The notes beneath the pieces were generated by a model, which saw nothing but the letters and a program-made list of their open reading frames with translations, was not told the DNA's origin and did no database searches. 64,000 nucleotides of DNA. It comes from an uncultured Chloroflexia bacterium. GTDB taxonomy: Bacteria > Chloroflexota > Ktedonobacteria > Ktedonobacterales > Ktedonobacteraceae. Below, one piece after another: positions 2,332 to 63,318 of this stretch; positions within the stretch are counted from its first letter, which is position 1; every line of letters starts with the position of its first letter. Both the position numbers and the translations under genes were made by a program. The DNA lies in contig CAVSHN010000008.1 of assembly GCA_963727755.1 (NCBI GenBank), positions 541,156 through 605,155 of the forward strand. The letters are read 5' to 3'.

Positions 2332-4192
2332 ATGACACAAGAAGCTGCTACGAAACAAAAGAGCAGTCTGGATAAGTCGATTGATCTGGGGCTAGACCAG
2401 TTTGGGCGTTTTTTGAAAAGCTCTTGGCTCTGGCTCACAATCGTATTCGTACTCATCCTTTTCTTCACATCCATAATCAAGATACCTGGGGTCGATCCAG
2501 GTGTCATCCTCACATCGACGCTTGAGATTGGCTTCGCAATTTGTTACATCCTGATCCAGTTTATCGCTCTCTTCTGGTTCTTAGGACGTCCACGCCTGTA
2601 TTGGGTCATGCCTGGAGAAACTGGAGTCACCTTTGACGATTATAAAGGCAATCCTGAAGTGCTCGAAACAGCCCGGCGCATGGTTGCATTATTGCGTGGC
2701 ATTAAAGAATTCGAGCAAATGGGCGGCAAACCAGTCCGCGGTCTGCTACTCTCTGGCCCTCCAGGAACAGGTAAGAGCTACCTAGCACAGTGTATGAGCA
2801 CTGAAGCTGGCGTCCCATTTGCCTATGCCAGTGCCGCCAGTTTCCGCGCTATGTTCATTGGCATGGACGTCCTTATGATTAGCAGGCTCTATCGCAAAGC
2901 TCGCAAACTGGCACGCGAGTATGGCGGTTGTGTTGTCTTCATGGACGAAATCGACGCTATCGCTACATCACGTACCGCCCGAGGCGGGGGAACTATGGCA
3001 ATGGGAGGCGGTATCTTCGGTGGTATGGGGGGAACAGGTGGTCTCAATCAACTTCTGATGGAAATGGACCCACCGAACATTGAAACAGGCTGGTTTAAGA
3101 AAGTTCTCCGTATGCTCGGTCTCTACCATAGCCGAGCACAGAGTGAACCTGTCCTGACAGTTGGAGCAACCAACGTCCCTGAGTCCCTTGATCCAGCACT
3201 TCTACGTCCAGGCCGCTTCGATCGGAAGGTCCATGTTGCTCCACCAACAGATAAATACCGTCCAGAGGTGATAGAATTCTACCTGAATAAGGTGAAACAT
3301 AAACCAAATATATCTCTTCCTGCACTTTCAGCTCGAATGGTTAACTATACACCAGTTGCCATTAAGCATGTAGTCAATGAAGCAACCATTGTCGCTCACT
3401 TCGATGGCCGCGATACAATCACTTACAAAGATCTTGTTGATGCACAGGATGTACATGAATACGGCCTGCGCCAGATAAGCGAACTGACACCCATCGAACG
3501 CCGTCGTTTGGCTTACCATGAAGCTGGCCATACCGTCGCTGCTTACTACCTGAAGGACCGCGAATACCCAGCATTCGTCACGTTACATGGCCACGGAGAT
3601 GTGGAAGGAGCCGCTGCTTTTGCACATTCTCGACCAAAAAGAAACTGTCATTACGCAAAATCGAGAAGATCTTCTGGCTCAGATCCAAGTCTGCTTGGCA
3701 TCTCGCGCCTCTGAAGAACTCTTCCTCAATACCCAACTGAGCGGCGTCACGTCAGACTTTGCGACAGCGACCCAACTGGCCACGTTATACATAGGCGCAT
3801 TCGGCATGGATGGCACGATTACATCCTACCTAGGTTTTTCCGACGGGTTCATGGGAGCTAATCCACGCGGCTTGCCAAAAATGGAAGAACGTGTAGAAGC
3901 GTTGCTCCAATCGCAACTTAAGGCCGTCCGACAGCTCTTTATGGAACATCGAGAAGCTCTTATCGCCCTTGCTGAAGCCTTGATAGAGCGTGATGAACTG
4001 GTTGCAGAAGAAATCAAGGAGGTGATTGCCAGTGCGGATGCACGTAAGGCTATCCAAACTGTTCTCAGTGAATTCTCTCCACTGCTGGGAACAGGCAACA
4101 ATGGACATAGAGAGGCTATAGCAAATGGCCATAGCAAGGAAACGCCCTCTCTGCCCAGCCCACGAAATAATCCTCCGCAGAACATGGACTGA
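2332..4192 (+). CDS. FtsH-like AAA+ ATPase / M41 zinc metalloprotease paralog, reading frame interrupted
   Basis: Walker A GPPGTGKS, Walker B DEID, sensor GATN, PGRFDRKV, HEAGH zinc motif, then an FtsH C-terminal helical region. The track's ORFs 2332..3714 and 3587..4192 join if one A is dropped from the A5 run at 3636-3640. Atypical N-terminus (two TM helices, no FtsH periplasmic domain) and a Gly-rich insertion between Walker B and sensor-1. Confidence 0.7.
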
Positions 4193-8897: not shown

Positions 8898-9350
8898 CTA
8901 TTCTCCTGTACTTCCAAAACCTCCACGGCCACAGCCCACCTGTCCCACTTCATCCCAGACAACACGGGTAACTGGAACAAATATTCCCTGAGCGATACGT
9001 TCGCCACGCAAAACAGAAACTGGTTCGTCACGAAAATTATAGACCGAGACGAGCACTTCATCACCTTCACCACAATAGTCTTGGTCAACAACTCCCACAC
9101 CGTTTGGTATCAATAGCCCCTTACGCTTGGCTGTACTGCTTCGCATGGTCAGGAGCAACATATATCCTGGTGGCGTCTCGACGATAACATTGCCAGAAAT
9201 GCGTGCTAACCTACCTGGTAGCACTTCGGTATCCTCACGGCAAATTAAGTCGAAACCCACTGACCCCGCTGTAGCATATCTGGGTAGTGGCAAGGCTGTA
9301 TCGACTCTTTTGATTTTGACATTCAAACTGTAAGGAAAATGGTTCATCAA
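8898..9350 (-). CDS. dut: dUTP diphosphatase
   Basis: 150 aa with dUTPase motifs (AGSVGFDL, PPGYMLLLTMRSS, GVGVVDQDYCGE, SVLRGERIAQ). Confidence 0.85.
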   Translation of the reverse strand: MMNHFPYSLNVKIKRVDTALPLPRYATAGSVGFDLICREDTEVLPGRLARISGNVIVETPPGYMLLLTMRSSTAKRKGLLIPNGVGVVDQDYCGEGDEVLVSVYNFRDEPVSVLRGERIAQGIFVPVTRVVWDEVGQVGCGRGGFGSTGE

Positions 9351-9361
9351 AATCTGGCAAG

Positions 9362-9783
9362 GATACCCCTGCCTTTAGGCATGGGGAGGAATTGCCCCCT
9401 GCACGCAATGGGATGTGGGGAAGGCAAGTGGAGGGCTGTCCTTGTGCGTAAGCACTCTCTTGCCTCTCCTTTCTGTTCTGTCCCCTTGCGGGGAGCCGTT
9501 TTTTGATAGGAACGGCTAAACCGACACTGGTCTCCCAGGTAATGTTCGCCTCGACGATGATATCAACCGGTACTTTCCGATGAGCACTGGCTTAACCCTT
9601 GTACACCTGTTTAACCCATCAGTTCTAGAGCAGCGGGCTGGCGTCGCACCCGCTGGTAGGAGCTTGAACACTTGTTGATATCGTAGCCCCGTCAGCCTTT
9701 CGGCTGGTGGCTGGGTCTGGTCAGGTGGGCTTGATGAAACAACGTTGCCGCTGCTCACAAGCCCCTAGCGAAAGCTTGCGGGT
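9362..9783 (-). mobile_element. Miniature IS200/IS605-like element with omega-RNA-like scaffold and no protein gene
   Basis: Shares its 5' hairpin, a ~270-nt structured core and a 3' end region with the IscB element at 61030-62701 but has no iscB. The 5' flank is TCAGG before AACCC. See findings. Confidence 0.55.
9516..9783 (-). ncRNA. Orphan IscB-type omega-RNA-like structured RNA
   Basis: Aligns end-to-end with the region 5' of iscB (62430-62700). Stems show compensatory substitutions (gatatcaac/gttgatatc versus gttatcgac/gtcgataac; cggg..cccg versus cacg..cgtg). Confidence 0.5.
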
Positions 9784-10636
9784 TCCTGACAGATGGGTTC
9801 TATTCTAGGGAGTGACATCTCCCCATGACTAATGAATGTTAAGAAATTAACAGGGTAAAGAGATAAGCATCGTATATACCCTCTTAATTTTTTAAAGTTC
9901 ATAAGTCATGGGCTTCCCATCCTCACGAATGAGCTTTTCTGTTTCATCGGGGGTTGCCAGTCTGAGCTTTCGCCTTGAGCGGGTCTTATACTCCCTCCGC
10001 AAACCTAAATTCCCCTGAGCCCCAGGGTACTTACTCAGGAGCCACTTTGGGCTGCTGACAACGCTATTCTAGCAGATCTATCGAAAATTATACACTGGAA
10101 TAGGCAAAAGGTACCCCGGTGCCCAACCCCCATTAAAGGACGCGTCATTCATCCCCATAGCTGAAGCAAGGGGTCTTCTGACGCAAGAAGAATAAGCGCC
10201 GACACGTCAAGGGTTTCCCACAAAACCCAAAACTGTCCCTCTTTTCTCCTATGAGAAAGTGCAAACTTCTGTTAAAATAAAATCAAAATGACAGGCACAA
10301 AAAAGCTAGAGATCCTGCCACCTCCGGTCCTACTAAAACGTATAAAGGGAAAGGCTGTTTAATTTGACTTACCAAATTATCCAAGAATTTCTAGAGAATC
10401 CGGCCCTCAGGGACTAGAATGAAAGGAGGACTTGCGTTATAATTGGAATAGGAATAATTTCCAACTTGATATTGTTGCTTTCTAGAAGAGACAGGATACA
10501 TGTCATTGAATTCCTCTTACTCGGCGCCCGGACAGAACGGTCTGACGGAGGCCCGTTTTCCCTGAGTGTAGGACCATACAAATGAACAGATATCTTGCTG
10601 CTTAGGATATACTTACTTTTTCCTGGAGGGCGCACA

Positions 10637-12567: not shown

Positions 12568-12921
12568 TTACTGTTCTCTAGAAGAGTATTCCTGAATAAG
12601 CTGTTCTATCTGCTTCTTAAGTATCGGCAATGCGTTTACTACTGTATCCCAAATTCTATTAAAATTTATGCCAAAATACTGATGAATGACAACATCCCTC
12701 AAACCTGCCATTTCTTTCCATGGAACATCTGAATGCTTCTTCCTGAATTCGTCGGGAAGGTTTTTCGTTGCCTCTCCGATAATTTCAAGTCTTCTGACAA
12801 CAAGGTCTTGCTTCTCTACAGATGTATGAAAATACTCTTCTGTTACCCCTTGCACATACATCTCTATGAGATTAATCGATTCCAAAATGCGCGTGAGAAA
12901 AACGATTGGCTCTTTTTTCAT
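12568..12921 (-). CDS. HepT-like (DUF86) toxin of a HepT/MNT pair
   Basis: 117 aa with the Rx4HxY motif (RDVVIHQY). Overlaps the upstream MNT gene by 4 nt. Confidence 0.7.
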   Translation of the reverse strand: MKKEPIVFLTRILESINLIEMYVQGVTEEYFHTSVEKQDLVVRRLEIIGEATKNLPDEFRKKHSDVPWKEMAGLRDVVIHQYFGINFNRIWDTVVNALPILKKQIEQLIQEYSSREQ

Positions 12922-13439
12922 AAAATTGGATACTGCGATGCTAGAATAGAGTCCTTCAAAAGTGGATGAATTCCCCCATACTCAACTACATCGACCTTCC
13001 TATGCAATATTTCCTCAATAGCTTGTTTTATCCCAATCAAATCAAAAAGCGTTTTGCCCCTAGGAAGATCAACAAGAACATCAATATCACTATTTTCGTT
13101 GTTATCTCCCCTTACATATGATCCAAAAAGTGCGGCTTTTTTCACTTCTGCCTGTTCAAGTACTGGTAGTATTTTTTGTACTATTTGTTCCAAAGTTAGC
13201 TGTTCCATTACACCTTCGCTGTACTCATTACGAATACTTTCACGTGCAAAGTTGAGTACCGCAACAATTTGCTCGCGTGTTAGTTGGGGATACTCATCAA
13301 GCAATTTCTCAATGGTATAGCCTAGAGCAAGCTGTTCAAGGACGAAATCCACACTGATGTATGTGCCTGCAATACAAGGCTTACCAGATGCGATGTTGGG
13401 ATCAATACTAATATACTGGTTATCAATCATAATGAGCAC
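12918..13439 (-). CDS. DUF433 domain fused to a minimal nucleotidyltransferase (MNT antitoxin-like)
   Basis: N-terminal IDPNIASGKPCIAGTYISVDFVLEQLALGYTIEKLLDEYPQLT is DUF433-like. C-terminal GSYVRGDNNENSDIDVLVD is the GSx9-DxD nucleotidyltransferase motif. Confidence 0.7.
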   Translation of the reverse strand: MLIMIDNQYISIDPNIASGKPCIAGTYISVDFVLEQLALGYTIEKLLDEYPQLTREQIVAVLNFARESIRNEYSEGVMEQLTLEQIVQKILPVLEQAEVKKAALFGSYVRGDNNENSDIDVLVDLPRGKTLFDLIGIKQAIEEILHRKVDVVEYGGIHPLLKDSILASQYPIL

Positions 13440-13493: not shown

Positions 13494-16042
13494 CTTACTT
13501 CTTTCCACCAAGATCGCGTGCAACAGAAACCACGCCTTTGATTCTCTCCAAGCGCATGAATAGGCGATGTAATACCTCTAGCTCAGTAATCTGTACCGTC
13601 ATAGTCACAATGGCAGTATCCCGATTGGCCCGACTACTGATCGAGAGCAAATCAGTTCCAATGTCACCAATGACAATCTTAATATCCCGTACCAGGTTTT
13701 TCTCGTTTCGCGCAACAACTACAATAGATGCAAGATAGTGCTGTTGACTTATTCCCGACCAATCTACATTAATTAGCCGTTCACCATCCTGAGTCCGAAT
13801 ATGAGTTATATTATGACAATCCGCACGGTGGACAGATTACCCCCTTGCCACGACTGACAAAACCAACAATGGCATCACCCGGCAAAGGACAACAACAACC
13901 CGCCAGCTTAGATAAAAGACCACTGACTCCAGCCACCTCCAACTGAGCTGTAGCCACTTTAGTGGTGACGGCAGGGAGTGGACGAGTGTCTTGATCTTCC
14001 TTCAGTTCTCTTGTTTCTTTCCCTTCGCGCTGCTGCCAGTATACAAGGAGTTTCACAACAACAGGATGAGGACGCATATCATCTGAACCAAGACTTGCCA
14101 GGATGTCCTCAAATGACTCGAGATGGAATTCGCTACAGAGCATATTCTCGGCATCTTCCGTGATAGCCTCTACACCACGAGGGCCCACAGCCTTGAGTTC
14201 ACGATCTAACCGTTCACTCCCAATTTGGATATTTATAGGCCGTTCGTGAAGCTTAATGTAGCGCCGAATTTTGCTCTTGGCTGTAGCCGTACGGGCAAGA
14301 CTCAGCCAATCCCGCGTCGGATGTGCCGTACGATTGGTGACGATATCAACAATTTCTCCGCTCTTCAATTCGTAATCAAGTGGCACCATACGCGCCACCA
14401 ACCGCCCTCGATCCTCGCCTTCTTCTATCGTCGGTGTAATAATACGCGCACCAGCACATTTCTCACCAATTCCAGAATGAATGCGATAGGCAAAGTCAAG
14501 CGGAGTTCAGCCAACTGGTAGATCTTTCACTTCGCCTTTCGGCGTGAAGACAAAGATCTGCTCCTCAAAAGCATCATCCTTGCTGCCCACATCAACCAAT
14601 TCGCTCTCGCTCGTATTGGCAGTACGCAGATCTTGCTGCCACTTGGCAAGTTGCCGCAACCAACCTAGTAACTCTCTCGCAGAGGCAGAAGCAGAGTCAC
14701 CAACATCTTTGTAATGCCAGTGCATAGCAACACCATACTCTGCCATTTCGTGCATGGCATGAGTACGAACCTGAATTTCTACAAGTTGGTCATCCAGACA
14801 GAAAACAGTTGTGTGTAGAGCACTATACCCATTGGGTTTAGGATTGGCAATAAAATCTTTGATACGCCCATCCTTTGGCTTCCATAGGCTATGCACATGA
14901 CTCAACACAACATAGCAATCAGTCGTCGTATCAACCAGGATACGAAAAGCGATCAGATCATGAATCTTGCTGATATCAGCCGCCGCCTTGAGCTGTTCAA
15001 AATCCTCAACCTCACTAATTTCGCGTGCAATTTTTCGATAGAAACTATAAGCATGTTTCACACGCCCAGAAACTTCCGCTTTGACTCCGATCGCAGCCAT
15101 CTCTGAGCGCAAGAGACCACAGACATGCTCAACATACGACCTCCACTGCTTACTCTCTTCCTCGATGATATCGCGCACCCAGTTATACTTCTCGGGCTCT
15201 AGAACCTCAAAGGCTAGGTCCTCCAGCTCACACTCTACGCGTGACATACCCAGCCGTCCCGCCAGTGGAGCATAAATCTCTCGTGCTCCCTGCGCTGTGA
15301 CAAGCACCTGTTGCTGATCACTTGGATATATTTTTTCACGTATAAGGCGCATAGTATACAAGCGATATGCAAGTTTGAGGAGCACAACTCTGGGGTCATC
15401 CGCCATTGCTACAAACATCTTGCGAACAGCCTCGGCTTGTTGGCGACGCATTGCCTCCCGTACACGCGGCTTTTTACTTTCCACATTTGAGGCTATGCCA
15501 GCATCATTTTGCTCATTATAAATCTTCTTATGGCTTGCAGCTTGCATATTCTTAATCGTCGCCATTGCACCAGTTGCTGCATTTTGCTTTTTACGTTCCA
15601 AAATATTGAGCCGAGCCATACTGTCAATCACACGTGCGGTAGCTCTTCCCAAGACACGCTCGACCTGCTCAATAGTCAAAAGTTCAGCATCTACCGCTTC
15701 AAAGATCAAGCCAGCAGAAATACCTATTGCATCGACATGCATCATTTGAGCTAGAATGGTTGTGACGGCCAGAGCACGTTCCACGCGAGGCAGGAGATGC
15801 ATCTCTTCTACGCCCTGGCGACAGCTATCTAGCGATAACCGAAAAGCCGCAACTACCATATCTACCTCCTGGACATTCATGTATGGGGATACCAAGTCCA
15901 GGAGTTGCTCCATTGCACTCTGGTAAGGATCTTCTGTGATGTGTTGTTCTATCGATCTATCATCTATCATAGACTTTTTGGCTATGAAAAGGTATACCAC
16001 CTCAAGGAGAGAACAGTTGACCTGTAAGGCCACCTCCAACAT
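13494..16042 (-). pseudogene. RelA-like long RSH paralog with degenerate hydrolase motif and several reading-frame lesions
   Basis: Synthetase domain is intact (DLIAFRILVDTTTDCYVVLSHVHSLWKPKDGRIKDFIANPKPNGYSALHTTV). The HD motif is replaced (FEAVDAE versus HDVVEDT in the neighbour). There is an in-frame TGA at 14497-14499 where the paralog has Ser (PVG*TPLD). Around 13812-13850 the conserved GKGVSVHRADCHNITHI only appears in a +1 frame between two compensating indels. An ACT domain follows, ending GGKK. Confidence 0.6.
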
Positions 16043-28359: not shown

Positions 28360-28557
28360 ATATGATATGATAAAATGATCTAAAATAGAAAGCTGTGAAT
28401 GCTCTGTTTAGCTTATTAGCCTGCTTACAGTTAACAGCCCATTCATCCCCCGTCTTTCAAGCGGGAGATGAATGGGCCTACCTTTTATGGGGCTTGGGCA
28501 CAGGGATACTTTTGGGTTTGCCCTTGACAGACGTGTCTACATATTCCATGTCTATAG

Positions 28558-33391: not shown

Positions 33392-33499
33392 CAGAGTACC
33401 AAAACAGCCATGAGAGTACTTTAGTACCAAATTGAGTATTCATCTAACAGATTTATAGTACCCTTACCTTTGACTAAGTCAGCACACCTAGTAGTCAAG

Positions 33500-33958
33500 A
33501 ACCCCTGGCTAAAGCCTAGGGGCTTGCGAAACGGCTAGCGCAACGTAAGTTCTTGTCTAGTGGGCTCTCATTCAAGAGAGCAGCAGCGGTATGGGCTAAG
33601 AGATAGTGAAATCCCAGGCTCAAGTGCTAGGGAAAGTAACCGAAAGAGCGTTTGGATGCCACCCTAGTCTAAACCACCTCCTGCCACGCCGAAGCAGACG
33701 GTCTCGGACCTATGCCTGTACTGCAATCACGAAGGGTCATTGAACCTAGGCTTAGACCTAGCGTGCTCAACATCGAGCAAATGTTTTCTGGGCTTTCTCC
33801 TAAAAAGCCCGCCCCGCAAGGGAAAGGAACAAGCAAAGCAGAAAGGGGAGCAAGAGAGTGCTTACGCACAAGACAAGCTGGCCCATCGCCCGCCACTTGT
33901 CTTCCCCACATCCCCTTGCGTGCAGGGAGCCATTCCTCCCCTGCATGAATGACAGGGG
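33500..33958 (+). mobile_element. Miniature IS200/IS605-like element: same 5' hairpin and 3' end module as the IscB element, different interior
   Basis: 5' AACCCCTGGCTAAAGCCTAGGGGCTTGCGAAACGG after a TCAAG flank. The 3' ~150 nt is the reverse complement of 9366-9490, including the terminal cccctgcatgaatgacagggg hairpin. Confidence 0.45.
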
Positions 33959-34033
33959 TCTCTTGGCACATTTCTTATAATGCAATGTATTGTATCATTC
34001 TAGTATACGGGTACTCAAGAAAGCAAATCTGGC

Positions 34034-55225: not shown

Positions 55226-56594
55226 ATGGCTACATTTGACAACACATTACACATCGCACAAACCAAACCCATCATGCGCCCCACCGAGGAGATCCGCAAG
55301 GATTTCCCTATTCTCTCACATAAGGTGCATGGCAAGCCACTGGTGTACTTAGATAGTACGGCCAGTTCGCAGAAGCCCACAGTTGTGCTTGAAACGATGG
55401 AGCACTACTACCGAACCTACAATGCCAACATCCATCGCGGCGTCTACCACATAAGTGAAGAGGCGACAGCCGCAATGGACAAGGCGCGTGTGAAAATCGC
55501 TCGTTTCATCAAGGCACGCCAGAGCAAGCAAATCATCTTCACGCGCAACACGACCGAGAGTATCAACCTTGTGGCCTATAGCTGGGGGGATGCAAACATT
55601 CATGCTGGCGACTTGATTGTACTGACCGAGATGGAACATCACAGCAATCTTGTCCCCTGGCAACTGCTAGCTCAGCGTACAGGTGCCCATCTAGAATTTA
55701 TCCCGGTAAGTGATGAGGGCCTATTGCGTCTAGACATCTATCAGGAAGTCTTGCAACGGCAGCCAAAATTGGTAGCGTTTACCCACATGTCCAATGTCCT
55801 GGGAACAATCAATCCCGCCAAAGAGATGATCGCACAGGCGCATGCAGCGGGAGCCACAGTACTGCTAGATGCAGCCCAGAGTGTGCCTCACTTACCAGTC
55901 AATGTAGAGGATCTCGACGTCGATTTCCTGGCTTTCAGTGGACATAAGATGCTTGGTCCTACAGGTATTGGTGTCCTTTATGGCAAACGAGCATTATTAG
56001 AAGCCATGCCTCCATTTATGGGCGGTGGCGACATGATCCGCACGGTACACCTGCGCGAATTCTACTTGGAACGATCTACCATGGAAATTTGAGGCCGGAA
56101 CACCAGCCATTGCTGAGGCTATTGGTCTGGGAGTTGCGGTAGATTATTTGAATGAGTTATTGCAGTATCCTCCAACGGACCAAAGAGAAAACCCAACAGA
56201 CATGGGCAATCCCAACGGAGCAAAGCTCAACATGTCAAGCAATCTTGTATCGAGCATGGCAGCGGTACAACAACACGAGAGTGAGATAACAGCCTATGCC
56301 ATGGAGCAGTTACAAGCAATTGCTGGCTTGAAAATCTATGGACCCGATGCCAACCAACGTGGCGGAGTCATCTCTTTCACACTAGATGATATCCACCCAC
56401 ACGATCTGGCCTCGATCCTAGACCAAGAAGTGGGTGTAGCAATCCGTGCTGGCCATCATTGCGCCCAACCCTTGATGGACCGATTTGGGCTAGCCGCAAC
56501 GGCCCGTGCCAGCTTCTATATCTACACACTTCCAGCAGAAATTGATATACTAGTACAGGGATTACGCAAGGCACAAGAAATCTTTCGTTTCTAG
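55226..56594 (+). CDS. sufS: Cysteine desulfurase SufS, frame interrupted
   Basis: PLP Lys in FSGHKMLGPTGIG and catalytic Cys in RAGHHCAQP. ORFs 55226..56092 and 56148..56594 join at about 56063-56067 (REF then TWNDLPWKFEAGTP). About a 40-aa insertion follows DYLNEL. Confidence 0.85.
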
Positions 56595-60642: not shown

Positions 60643-61008
60643 ATGTCTACACGGTCATCAATTCATAAACTATTCCTGATCGCTCTATTTGCTTGGAGTG
60701 GACTGCTTCTTTTCACCTATTTTGTAAAGCCACAATCTGCACTAGCCTTCATAATCTTCCTGCTGATTGTGAGTGTAGCACTGACCAGTACGCTCGCGAT
60801 CATAGCTTATGGCATTAGTCGCTATCTATTTACATCCCGCGTTTACCGTGCAACTATTCGGCGAGCAATTCACCAAGGAGCGCTCTTATCTCTAGCAATT
60901 GTGCTAGACCTGATTTTGCGCATACTACATAGTGGGAATATTTTCACAGCGATTATGATTGTCGGGGCTACACTTGTACTAGAAGTGCTGACTTTAGCCA
61001 AGAAATAG
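60643..61008 (+). CDS. Small 4-TM membrane protein, translationally coupled to the HerA-like gene
   Basis: Starts 2 nt after the HerA stop. Four hydrophobic helices. Confidence 0.45.
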   Translation: MSTRSSIHKLFLIALFAWSGLLLFTYFVKPQSALAFIIFLLIVSVALTSTLAIIAYGISRYLFTSRVYRATIRRAIHQGALLSLAIVLDLILRILHSGNIFTAIMIVGATLVLEVLTLAKK

Positions 61009-61127
61009 CACTGATAAGAGTTATGCTACCTAGTCGCGCCAGAGTGCCCCTTGCAAGAGCCTTGGGGGTGAATGGCGCTTCCTTTCGGGGTGGGTTGGGA
61101 TGTGTGGGCCGCGTAGGCGGCGTGTGC

Positions 61128-62429
61128 TTAAGCACACTGCTCACCGCTCTGATAGCTGTACCCGTCCATCTTATGCACTACTTTACAATATCTGTAGCCT
61201 GTATCGAAACGAGTACCATCCTTTCTATAGAGTTTGAAATTACCTGTTTCACGTGCTGCAATGCGTCCAATATGCACTCCAGCATTCTTGAGGTGTGATG
61301 GCCTCACAGCTTTCACAATATCCCCAGTCTGGAAGCCATAGAAGATCTTGGCTTGCTTCGCCCCGCCGACTGGAAAACCGTACTTATCGTGATTTTGGAC
61401 TTGACGGCATCCATGTCCGTAAGCGCGAATTTGCAAGGGTTGCACACCTCTTATATTCAGAACTGCTGGTGTGCTCTTCCCCACGCACGCTGCGTCTAGC
61501 CAATGAGTCTTCGACAACTTGCGGTTGGTCCGGTTGAACTTGGTGAGCCCACCAGAACCGCACTCAATTGGTAAGCCAAAACCTTGCAAGCGCCTGAACA
61601 ATTCCCATCGTGTTGCATTCACAGCAGCAGCATCTTTGAGAGGTGCTTTTGCGAAGGCTTCGATCTTCTTCAAGAGATCTGGCTTTTTCTTGAGGAACTC
61701 CTCTATGTTCTTGGTTCCCTTGGCTAGATTGCGTTTCTCGCATGAGAGGCACAAATTGCTCACTCTGTTTGAACCTCCTTTAGCACGAGGAACAATATGC
61801 TCAATTTGCAGAGGAATATTTTCCTTGCCGCAATATGTACACTTATGTTCCCACTTGTGCAAGAGATATTCACGGACTTCATATCCTGCCAAAGTACCTT
61901 GCTGATATTCAGTGCCGGATATCTCAGCATTTTCCATCAGTTGCATATCGAACTTCACCAGCTCCATGCTGATGTTCGTGATATGACACACTCGTGCCAA
62001 ACGTTGGACCCAGGTGAGTATATTGCTGATCCGACTCTGGAGCGATGGTGGCAACCAGCCAGATGCTCGTCTTCTGTTTTGCCATCGTGGTTTGCGATTG
62101 CGGGTATGGCGTGCTCGTCTGCCTCTGCGTGAACCTCGCCGATCGTCTAAGCTCTTTTTGATGGCTTGCCCACGATGTGACAACTCCGCTGTGTAGACGA
62201 CTCTGCCGCTAGCATCATCGACAATCGCTATGCCCGTGGTTCTTGAGCCTGGATCAAGCTTGACCCGCAAATCGGGAACTTTCGGACTCTCAACCGCATA
62301 CTTCAGGATGATGGCGAATGGGAATTTGCGATATATGGCAGCTTTACCTGCATCCAGCAGTATCCTTGCTTTAGCCTCATGGCATGGAGCAAGCGGTACT
62401 TTGTTAGTGTCCATGACGAAAACTGACAT
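61128..62429 (-). CDS. iscB: IscB, the Cas9-ancestor RNA-guided HNH/RuvC nuclease
   Basis: 433 aa. PLMP domain (NKVPLAPCH), RuvC-I LDPGSRTTGIAIVD, Arg-rich bridge helix, RuvC-II ISMELVKFD, HNH CTYCG...IEHIVPRAKGGSNRVSNLCLSCEKRN, RuvC-III HWLDAAC. All catalytic residues are present. Confidence 0.8.
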   Translation of the reverse strand: MSVFVMDTNKVPLAPCHEAKARILLDAGKAAIYRKFPFAIILKYAVESPKVPDLRVKLDPGSRTTGIAIVDDASGRVVYTAELSHRGQAIKKSLDDRRGSRRGRRARHTRNRKPRWQNRRRASGWLPPSLQSRISNILTWVQRLARVCHITNISMELVKFDMQLMENAEISGTEYQQGTLAGYEVREYLLHKWEHKCTYCGKENIPLQIEHIVPRAKGGSNRVSNLCLSCEKRNLAKGTKNIEEFLKKKPDLLKKIEAFAKAPLKDAAAVNATRWELFRRLQGFGLPIECGSGGLTKFNRTNRKLSKTHWLDAACVGKSTPAVLNIRGVQPLQIRAYGHGCRQVQNHDKYGFPVGGAKQAKIFYGFQTGDIVKAVRPSHLKNAGVHIGRIAARETGNFKLYRKDGTRFDTGYRYCKVVHKMDGYSYQSGEQCA

Positions 62430-62700
62430 GTGTAAAATTCCTTTCGGAACCTGGAAACCCAGGTGATGTGTGCCTCGACAATGTTATCGACCCGGTACTT
62501 TCTGATGAGCACTGGCTTAACCCTTGTACACCTGTTTAACCCATCAGTTCTAGAGCAGCACGCTGGCAACGCACGTGCAGGTAGGAACTTTAACTCTCAT
62601 CGATAACGTAGCAGAGTCGCCTCTGCTGAGTCTGGTCATGTGAGCTTGTGAAACGATGCTAGCACCGCTCCACAAGCCCCTGCCCGCAAAGGCATGGGGT
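62430..62700 (-). ncRNA. Putative IscB omega-RNA scaffold
   Basis: About 270 nt directly 5' of iscB and abutting the element's 5' end. It is conserved in the orphan copy at 9516-9783 with compensatory stem changes. ORFs 62303..62569 and 9516..9758 across it are not credible genes. Confidence 0.55.
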
Positions 62701-63318
62701 TCATGACCTTTCTTTATTGATACCTCGTTTCCTATACTTTCGGAATGGCTCAAAAGCGGGGAGAACAACTCTATCATAAATTTCTTCGACGGGAACAGTC
62801 AAGCCAATACTTTGTAATTCCACATTTTCACCTTGCTTAAACCATGTAGTCAGCCATTGCCCGCCTTGCCGTCTCTCTATTTGGACTAACGTGCATTCAT
62901 AGTTAATAAGGACATACTCTTGAATGGAAGGACAATACGTATATTTAAGAAATTTTTCTCCTCTATCATCTTTTTCAGTAGAAGGAGATAATACTTCTAT
63001 TACTAATTTTGGATACTCTATATAGGTTGGATTTTCATCTTCCGCCAAATCCTTTTCATCGCATGTTACCATCAAATCAGGCAATAAACACTCATCCTCT
63101 ATTTTAAGAGTCATTTCTGTAAAAACAAAACAGGGACTTCCTTTTAGATGATTACCTAAAATGAGATGAAGATTAGATATAAGCATCCCATGGTGTTTAG
63201 AACCCCCCGCCATGGCTATCATACGACCATTTCTGTATTCGTATTTCTGGTCAAGAGATTCACGATCTAGGGCCAAGAAGTCCTCTACAGAGAACCAATC
63301 GTCTCTTTGTGCTACCAT
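62701..63318 (-). CDS. Uma2-family (DUF820) PD-(D/E)XK endonuclease
   Basis: 205 aa, similar to Uma2/putative restriction endonuclease family proteins along its length. Its 3' end is the insertion site of the IscB element. Confidence 0.65.
   Translation of the reverse strand: MVAQRDDWFSVEDFLALDRESLDQKYEYRNGRMIAMAGGSKHHGMLISNLHLILGNHLKGSPCFVFTEMTLKIEDECLLPDLMVTCDEKDLAEDENPTYIEYPKLVIEVLSPSTEKDDRGEKFLKYTYCPSIQEYVLINYECTLVQIERRQGGQWLTTWFKQGENVELQSIGLTVPVEEIYDRVVLPAFEPFRKYRKRGINKERS

Follow-up and report, generated by a model that had tools for sequence, protein, structure and literature searches.

A probable standalone omega RNA: a protein-less IscB-type mini-element between the promoter and the start codon of dut in a Ktedonobacteraceae contig

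Why should an omega RNA of the type that accompanies the IscB nuclease be found immediately in front of dut, a housekeeping gene, with no nuclease gene beside it? The locus lies in a stretch of 64,000 nucleotides from an uncultured Chloroflexia bacterium (contig CAVSHN010000008.1, positions 541,156 to 605,155 of the forward strand), which was analyzed as a whole and is called the window below; homologues of its dut gene place it in the Ktedonobacteraceae. An earlier reading made from the letters alone, here called the sequence-only reading, proposed that the stretch upstream of dut is an omega RNA carried on an IS200/IS605 derivative similar to a miniature inverted-repeat transposable element (MITE). 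Our analysis leads to the same explanation. The stretch, which we name element A, is with a probability of roughly 0.85 a non-autonomous, protein-less derivative of an ISC/IscB-type IS200/IS605 transposon, i.e., a “standalone omega RNA” resembling MITEs and palindrome-associated transposable elements (PATEs). The evidence is a full-length Rfam match with an intact fold, empty sites in five related contigs, a 5'-GT terminus, an insertion at ATGA (PMC4810608) without target-site duplication, and an end which belongs to the same family as the end of an iscB-carrying element in the window. The features described in the sequence-only reading sit on the minus strand.

The insertion at the dut start codon

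Element A is a discrete insertion which is missing from the closest sampled relatives. These are five Ktedonobacteraceae contigs (L001-L005) with 85-96% nucleotide identity in the dut region, in which the gene order is kept, a sigma-70 gene followed divergently by dut and dnaJ. At the base level all five join ...CATC(T) straight to ATGAACC. In the window element A is placed exactly between ...CCCTAGAATAGAACCCATCT and the ATG of dut, with the junctions ...CATCT/GTCAGG...TTTTG/ATGAAC (the slash marks the junction), which means that the element starts with 5'-GTCA and that ATGA comes directly after it. Its ends are 5'-GTCAGGAACC ... CCAGATTTTG-3' and a target-site duplication is not present. The sequence-only reading had let the element run from 9783 to 9362 with 12 nt left before the start codon; the empty sites fix it at 9790 to 9348, and the gap is 0 nt since element A abuts the ATG. 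The position directly 5' of dut was correctly seen: the gene (PF00692) starts at the ATG at 9347, as indicated by homologue coverage, and its closest homologue is 93% identical.

ISC elements and their TnpB-encoding relatives have 5'-GT termini and insert at N/ATGA or N/ATAA without duplication (Kapitonov, 2016, PMC4810608), and ATGA-type target-adjacent motifs (TAMs) have been described for IsrB (PMC9581776). Element A has the features expected for the ISC and IS200/IS605 group: its insertion is discrete, L001-L005 show the empty site, a target-site duplication is lacking, the terminus is 5'-GT(CA) and the insertion lies directly 5' of an ATGA/ATAA motif, and it has no protein-coding capacity. 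Because it abuts the dut start codon and fits the ISC insertion rules, we take the ATGA of dut to be its target site and TAM. Two other insertions in the window, orphan 2 and element X, obey the same rule for terminus and target, with ATAA.

Element X is a second protein-less, PATE-like insert. It starts with 5'-GTGAC and is inserted before ATAA in the opposite orientation to element A, without target-site duplication. Because element X (9812-10191) adjoins element A, the inserted DNA at the dut site totals ~840 nt; the spacing between the sigma factor gene and dut is 1,377 nt in the window versus ~464 nt in L001-L005. Element X carries a long AT-rich hairpin (9822-9857 / 9877-9912) and a TAM-side module (10088-10180, nhmmer E=3e-19). 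No omega RNA is recognisable in it, and a permissive Rfam scan gave only meaningless miRNA-like matches on the AT-rich hairpin. Conceivably it encodes a TnpB-type omega RNA which would use the 21-nt island next to it (9791-9811) as guide.

In the convention used for IS200/IS605 elements the omega-RNA side is the right end (RE), with the guide immediately beyond it (Meers et al., 2023, bioRxiv 10.1101/2023.03.14.532601). Read from this side, element A consists of the omega RNA scaffold, a small hairpin (9527-9538) which is kept in all copies with varying loops, a linker, and the TAM-side or left end (LE). The linker has two hairpins, GCCGTT..AACGGC and TCCCC-GCAA-GGGGA (9516-9481), which on the opposite strand read as a terminator with a T-run (terminator-like site at 9481-9494, plus strand). 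It also contains ...ACAGAAAGGAGAGGC..., which resembles the iscB 3' end of another IscB locus (L042) and may be what is left of the 3' coding end of an iscB gene. The TAM-side end opens with the palindrome GTGCTTACGCAC (9455-9444) followed by CCCCACATCCC, and has a subterminal imperfect hairpin, CCCCATGCC-TAAA-GGCAGGGG (9386-9366); the corresponding hairpin on the guide side is CCCGCAAGC-TTTC-GCTAGGGG. Imperfect hairpins are present at both ends, and they are candidate binding sites of the Y1 transposase. Paired linker hairpins are also found in orphan 2 (33795-33830), likewise terminator-like with a T-run opposite the omega strand, and the first of them differs from that of element A by compensated changes (GCCGTT/AACGGC versus GGGCTTT/AAAGCCC). 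This suggests that the linker hairpins may have a conserved structural role, e.g., in blocking transcription which enters from the TAM side.

The sequence-only reading stated that no iscB follows the omega RNA. This holds: tblastn finds none and the next gene is dut. The same search found no iscB remnants in element A, element X or orphan 2. Element A has no conserved open reading frame (ORF) either, since the amino-acid similarity between it and orphan 2 jumps between frames, and the antisense ORFs do not keep their frame from one to the other. A 100-aa antisense ORF of orphan 2 was considered as a gene and rejected; the similarity switches frame, and the version in element A starts outside the element.

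The omega RNA and related elements in the window

The scaffold of element A matches the Rfam family HEARO (RF02033) from 9790 to 9539 over model positions 1-211 of 211, with 129.1 bits (E=2e-26) where the gathering score in Rfam is 83. Only one other match in the window lies above this cut-off. It runs from 62707 to 62463, directly 5' of iscB, and at 120.1 bits it scores lower than element A. An alignment of the orphan with the region 5' of iscB was already part of the sequence-only reading, and it was borne out: between 9790-9534 and 62707-62458 206 of the 245 ungapped columns are identical (~84%), and a core of 55 nt is identical in both copies (9633-9579 and 62558-62504). One feature of HEARO RNAs is missing in element A, namely the location directly 5' of an iscB ORF (RRXRR + HNH); here dut follows.

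The helices are kept with compensatory substitutions. Among the 68 predicted pairs of element A 67 are standard and one is non-standard. Compared to the iscB-linked copy (67 comparable pairs), 51 pairs are unchanged, 10 differ on both sides and are compensated, and three are changed on one side and still paired. The paired differences which had been pointed out before are real (gatatcaac/gttgatatc versus gttatcgat/gtcgataac; cggg/cccg versus cacg/cgtg), and a structure alignment with more copies confirmed the compensatory pattern. For this pair count six copies were used: element A, the iscB-linked copy, L006, L039, L041, and L016. The long-range stem was dropped by RNAalifold from the six sequences, three of which are offset by one base, and was added by hand, so that its inner pairs appear “broken” in the three offset sequences. 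Standard pairs make up 93.5% of the cells versus 26-39% when the partners are slid by 1-3 columns, and there are 24 two-sided pair changes versus 3-5 in the slid controls; the structure was partly derived from the same six sequences, which inflates this contrast, and the independent Rfam model concurs with it. None of 500 shuffles matched the observed covariation values.

The sequence-only reading saw in the paired differences a sign of selection on RNA structure. This is right for the RNA family and not for the orphan: the compensatory pattern is likewise seen in four iscB-linked copies, and the changes show purifying selection on the family, not on the orphan after loss of iscB. Most plausibly they arose during the divergence of two omega lineages, with the nucleases still attached. 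The insertions of element A and orphan 2 are evidently recent because their sites are empty in contigs only 4-7% diverged. The intact fold of element A is expected anyway, as the insertion took place after the separation from relatives which are 93-96% identical.

A hidden Markov model of the TAM-side end (nhmmer) has four clear members in the window, in element A, element X, the iscB element, and at 33845-33965, and with L006 the family has five. A weak extra match on the minus strand at 28447-28516 (nhmmer E=0.001) has a perfect long hairpin, CCCATTCATCTCCCG...CGGGGGATGAATGGG, and may be a relic of another element.

The match at 33845-33965 belongs to orphan 2. Its HEARO-like RNA (33494-33744) is divergent; it scores 45.9 bits, below the Rfam cut-off, with E=3e-6 over the whole window. 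The empty site is found in contig L034 (93-96% identical), which reads ...CACCTAGT joined directly to CATGATGCAATG, where the window has ...CACCTAGTA/GTCAAG...TTTCTT/ATAATGCAATG. The insertion at N/ATAA is inside a -10-like box (TTGACT-17-A/ATAAT) ~57 nt upstream of a TPR gene. A 25-nt similarity, TTGNCT-AAGTCAGCAC--CTAGTA, connects the flank on the guide side of orphan 2 (33470-33493, plus strand) with 61001-60977 on the minus strand, just past the IscB element at its TAM side; its score is 28 versus a maximum of 25 in 500 shuffles. Within this similarity the guide of orphan 2 has a match with two mismatches at 60977-60992, with no ATRA motif after it, and this site is probably not its target.

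The IscB of the window (62429 to 61128) has RRXRR and HNH domains with visible RuvC and HNH motifs and is homologous to IscBs of solved structure. An IscB effector is thus encoded elsewhere in the same genome as the orphan RNAs, as a trans-acting standalone omega RNA would require, and the IscB element is a candidate for supplying IscB in trans. The 3' boundary of this element is set by the ATAA rule only. It is inserted at the 3' end of a co-oriented Uma2-family gene (63318-62701, minus strand), the stop codon of which, TGA, falls inside the first seven bases of the element, GTCATGA (62701-62707, minus strand). Transcription of the Uma2-family gene could supply the omega RNA of the IscB element with a guide.

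Element A is a mosaic. Its omega RNA is 83-84% identical to the iscB-linked and L006 type versus about 60-72% to orphan 2. Its TAM-side end is 90% identical to the end of orphan 2 (33857-33976), versus only about 67-70% for the 3' end of the iscB element. The sequence-only reading had described this end as a module shared with the IscB element; the end family is indeed the same, but the end of orphan 2 is the closer one. The layout is colinear in element A and orphan 2: omega RNA, two hairpins, GAACAG..AAAGGnGAG, palindrome and end. A further protein-less derivative, of the same subfamily as the iscB element of the window, is found on a JGI metagenome contig (L006 251-715, plus strand). It is composed of a HEARO RNA (112 bits), ~60 nt, the last ~13 iscB codons and a TAM-side end, and as its deletion junction differs from that of element A it is an independent orphan. 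Of the omega RNAs in the 64-kb window one thus has iscB and two lack it, and one related mini-element has no recognisable omega RNA.

Siblings and parents of element A were searched for outside the window. The 34-nt invariant omega core had no exact match in species-representative genomes and one in JGI metagenomes, which is L006. With a degenerate pattern of 21 nt taken from the 3' end of the omega RNA 27 genome loci were found, and only two of these, in Dictyobacter (L016) and Kouleothrix (L031), are real HEARO RNAs with IscB; the other 25 are chance matches, neither HEARO nor IscB. Four paralogous IscB loci (L039-L042) were rejected as parents because of their TAM-side ends, which either belong to the type of the iscB element or differ. 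Regarding short-form copies at other loci, orphan 2 shares the layout and the 90% identical end and has a divergent omega RNA; a near-identical sibling was not found in these searches.

Transcription at dut and the origin of element A

In the relatives the dut promoter is TTGACG-17 nt-TAGAAT-AGAGCGCATC-ATG. The -10 box is 10-11 nt from the start codon, which predicts a nearly leaderless mRNA. In the window element A parts dut from its -10 box, and element X splits the -35 box from the -10 box. A promoter-like site remains from 9831 to 9802, composed of the old -10 box and a new, weaker -35 box (TAGTCA) from the end of element X. A start ~7 nt after the old -10 box is predicted at about 9793-9797, i.e., 3-7 nt before the scaffold. 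Inspection of the TAM-side end by eye gave no convincing site for a dut promoter; CAGATT, at only 3 nt from the ATG, is too close. Because the element sits between promoter and start codon, dut expression must pass through or arise within element A. Since the insertion cut dut off from its promoter, the scaffold is most likely transcribed as dut leader; we consider it probable that the mRNA would have a leader of ~450 nt starting from the -10 box at 9807-9802 with the -35 box derived from element X. The predicted leader folds stably (z = -3.9).

How element A came to this site can be explained in different ways. Very probably its arrival was a TnpA-mediated single-strand “peel-and-paste” transposition, for which the Y1 transposase would have come in trans. 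That it moved as an already shortened element is the version we somewhat favor, because the layout is colinear with orphan 2, and since no sibling or parent of element A was found this movement is something we infer only. Loss of iscB in place is less likely and in our opinion doubtful. It postulates that a full-length IscB element inserted before dut, that iscB was deleted later, and that the short form never transposed. L006 agrees with such a course, showing that internal iscB deletions occur independently, with another junction and the last ~13 codons kept, and so do the possible iscB 3'-end remnant in the linker and the fact that a second copy of element A was not found in genomes or metagenomes. 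On the other hand, orphan 2 is a recent insertion at an unrelated locus with the same colinear layout, and two independent deletions are not expected to match; moreover, sites which are empty in relatives only 4-7% diverged leave little time for an insertion and then a deletion. Hardly credible is a segmental duplication or an assembly artefact which copied the region 5' of iscB beside dut. Several apparently split genes in the window hint at an error-prone long-read assembly, but the copies are only ~84% identical, the boundaries are at the family-typical 5'-GT and /ATGA, and the relatives have a clean empty site. A segmental duplication including flanking DNA had been named in the sequence-only reading as what would speak against it; the flanks of the two copies outside the element do not align, and it is therefore not a segmental duplication.

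The next question is whether the omega RNA does anything at the dut site. As the guide lies outside the RE (Meers et al., 2023), an IscB omega RNA has to be transcribed from a start beyond the end of its element, and at dut the stretch 5' of the scaffold (9791-9806, minus strand) would be a presumptive guide of 16 nt, AGAATAGAACCCATCT. It is possible, though we tend to doubt it, that a start at least 16 nt upstream of 9790 gives an RNA with this guide and that IscB (62429-61128 or a paralogue) then cleaves the empty allele, which has the guide match and the ATGA TAM; by such cleavage an excised element would be regained, in the manner of published restorative homing. An orphan RNA with a 5' flank of at least 16 nt which loads IscB and polices the dut site, by homing or by cleaving incoming empty alleles, would be in line with reports of standalone omega RNAs working with IscB in trans (PMC10691335, PMC9581776), with the intact IscB in the same window, whose omega RNA is ~84% identical including the 55-nt identical core, and with the correct geometry of guide and ATGA TAM for an empty allele. 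We nevertheless regard it as unlikely. The sole promoter-like site on the strand puts the start about 3-7 nt before the scaffold, and the upstream neighbour is the divergently transcribed sigma factor gene, which gives no read-through; for these two reasons a full 16-nt guide is doubtful here. The search for guide matches that the sequence-only reading had suggested was made within the window: neither the guide of element A nor that of the IscB element has a second match there, and AGAATAGAACCCATCT is unique. At the dut site a role as passenger is more likely for the omega RNA than one as active guide. It might also have been domesticated as a cis-regulatory leader which controls dut, possibly via IscB on the nascent leader. 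That an intact and conserved housekeeping gene has the element between its promoter and its start codon, and that the fold is stable (z = -3.9), could be taken that way, but the insertion is missing from all five close relatives and is thus recent and not conserved, the ATGA target preference fully explains the position, and no regulatory feature was identified in it; this we find very improbable. Only slightly better are the prospects that the leader-borne omega RNA is not inert because IscB from elsewhere binds the dut leader or uses it as a guide. The basis would be that it now forms the obligatory leader of dut and that its flank-derived guide equals the -10/leader sequence of this gene. 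If this were so, dut expression would be coupled to IscB levels, or un-inserted dut alleles arising by excision or recombination would be destroyed; the housekeeping gene would anchor a protein-less element in an addiction- or drive-like manner, and the 21-nt island 9791-9811 would be the flank common to the oppositely inserted elements X and A.

Some observations do not favor the explanation of element A as a mobile mini-element whose scaffold is transcribed with dut. Neither a near-identical sibling nor an iscB-bearing parent with the modules of element A turned up in genomes, in metagenomes or among L039-L042, and a Y1 transposase or TnpB is absent among the 37 ORFs of the window which were checked. 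In spite of the common layout of end and linker, the omega RNA of orphan 2 is only about 60-72% identical to that of element A; orphan 2 and element A do not represent recent copies of a single element. The distance of only 11 nt between the retained -10 box and the scaffold speaks against a full-length guide from this promoter, and a Shine-Dalgarno sequence is not visible before the ATG of dut.

Other features of the window and comparison with known systems

The coordinates of the features are presented in Table 1. Three genes of the window look split: an ORF at 13811-14401 (minus strand) has only the C-terminal AH/RIS domains of RelA, which has 802-808 aa in the relatives; an FtsH-like gene at 2332-4192 (plus strand) is divided into two overlapping ORFs; and an ORF at 56148-56594 (plus strand) has only the C-terminal part of an Aminotran_5 domain. 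They may be frameshift errors of the long-read assembly or pseudogenes. A HepT-like/nucleotidyltransferase pair of toxin-antitoxin type (DUF433 + NTP_transf_2, 12568-13439, minus strand) adjoins the sigma factor gene and is conserved in two of the relatives (L003 and L004).

Table 1. Features at the dut locus and related elements (positions in the window)
Feature	Position	Strand	Remarks
Element A, whole protein-less ISC/IscB-type mini-element	9348..9790	-	443 nt; empty sites in L001-L005
Omega RNA scaffold (HEARO, RF02033), full length; guide-side (RE) end	9539..9790	-	129.1 bits vs gathering score 83
Small hairpin after scaffold, CTGG-GAGA-CCAG	9527..9538	-	Helix 12 invariant in 6/6 sequences
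Linker with two hairpins and possible iscB 3' remnant	9457..9526	-	Colinear with orphan 2
TAM-side (LE) end module	9348..9456	-	nhmmer E=3e-27; four members in window + L006
ATGA, insertion target site/TAM, overlaps dut start codon	9344..9347	-	Junction; N/ATGA rule PMC4810608, ATGA-type IsrB TAMs PMC9581776
dut (dUTPase, 149 aa), intact	8898..9347	-	PF00692; homologues 149 aa at 99-100% coverage
Original dut -10 box (TAGAAT, 9807-9802) and short leader	9791..9810	-	Matches relatives' CCCTAGAATAGAATGCATCT-ATG
Displaced original dut -35 box (TTGACG)	10205..10210	-	Alignment with L001-L005
Element X, second protein-less PATE-like insert	9812..10191	+	380 nt, boundary ambiguous by 1 nt; empty sites
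Orphan 2, protein-less omega-type element	33494..33976	+	483 nt; empty site in L034
Intact IscB element	61025..62707	-	Omega RNA 62707-62463, iscB 62429-61128 (433 aa), TAM-side end

The dut locus is a well-defined natural example for studying the role of standalone omega RNAs, a role which has been described as still unknown (PMC10691335). The boundaries are exact, sister lineages have empty alleles, a candidate IscB is 52 kb away, the target and TAM coincide with a start codon, and the would-be guide is the -10 box of a promoter. The preference for ATGA and ATAA steers insertions of this family into start codons and -10 boxes and orients the omega RNA as a leader of the gene. The two ends of such mini-elements can stem from different subfamilies. 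For annotation it follows that HEARO matches without iscB beside housekeeping genes are to be read as mini-transposons and not as riboswitch-like leaders.

With the HEARO family (RF02033) element A has in common a full-length match above the gathering score, the conserved helices and the covariation. With the ISC2-type IscB transposons of Ktedonobacteria (PMC4810608) it shares the 5'-GTCA start, the insertion at ATGA/ATAA and the omega RNA upstream region, and termini are shared between different element families in both cases; element A differs by having no iscB (443 nt versus 1,341-1,707 nt) and by having ends from different subfamilies. PATEs are protein-less IS200/IS605 derivatives which often encode omega RNAs (Meers et al., 2023). 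Like them (see also PMC4810608) element A is a short element that lacks a protein gene, shows subterminal hairpins on either side and no target duplication, would depend on TnpA in trans, and carries a guide-RNA gene. The described PATEs are mainly of the TnpB type, with the omega RNA at the 3' side and an internal promoter of their own, whereas element A is of the IscB type, with the guide at the 5' side, so that transcription would have to come from outside.

A further comparison is with the standalone omega RNAs which, according to PMC10691335 and Hirano et al. (PMC9581776), both citing Altae-Tran et al. (2021), have been mobilised and are active in trans with IscB; they were first reported by Altae-Tran et al., as cited in PMC10691335, for Ktedonobacter racemifer, whose OMEGA systems that study characterised. 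As far as these accounts describe them, the likeness consists in the following: an IscB-type omega RNA without adjacent effector or transposase, evidently mobilised, in a genome which also has effector-containing loci, and from the same class, Ktedonobacteria. Compared to those accounts, element A differs in the truncated guide which the promoter geometry suggests and in its place at the junction between the promoter and the start codon of a housekeeping gene. Standalone omega RNAs are already known from Ktedonobacteria, and element A is a clear further example and not a new kind; it leaves the current understanding of OMEGA systems unchanged. What is specific to it is, besides a guide that is likely not usable, the insertion at a start codon within a promoter, the second insertion next to it, and the mosaic ends.

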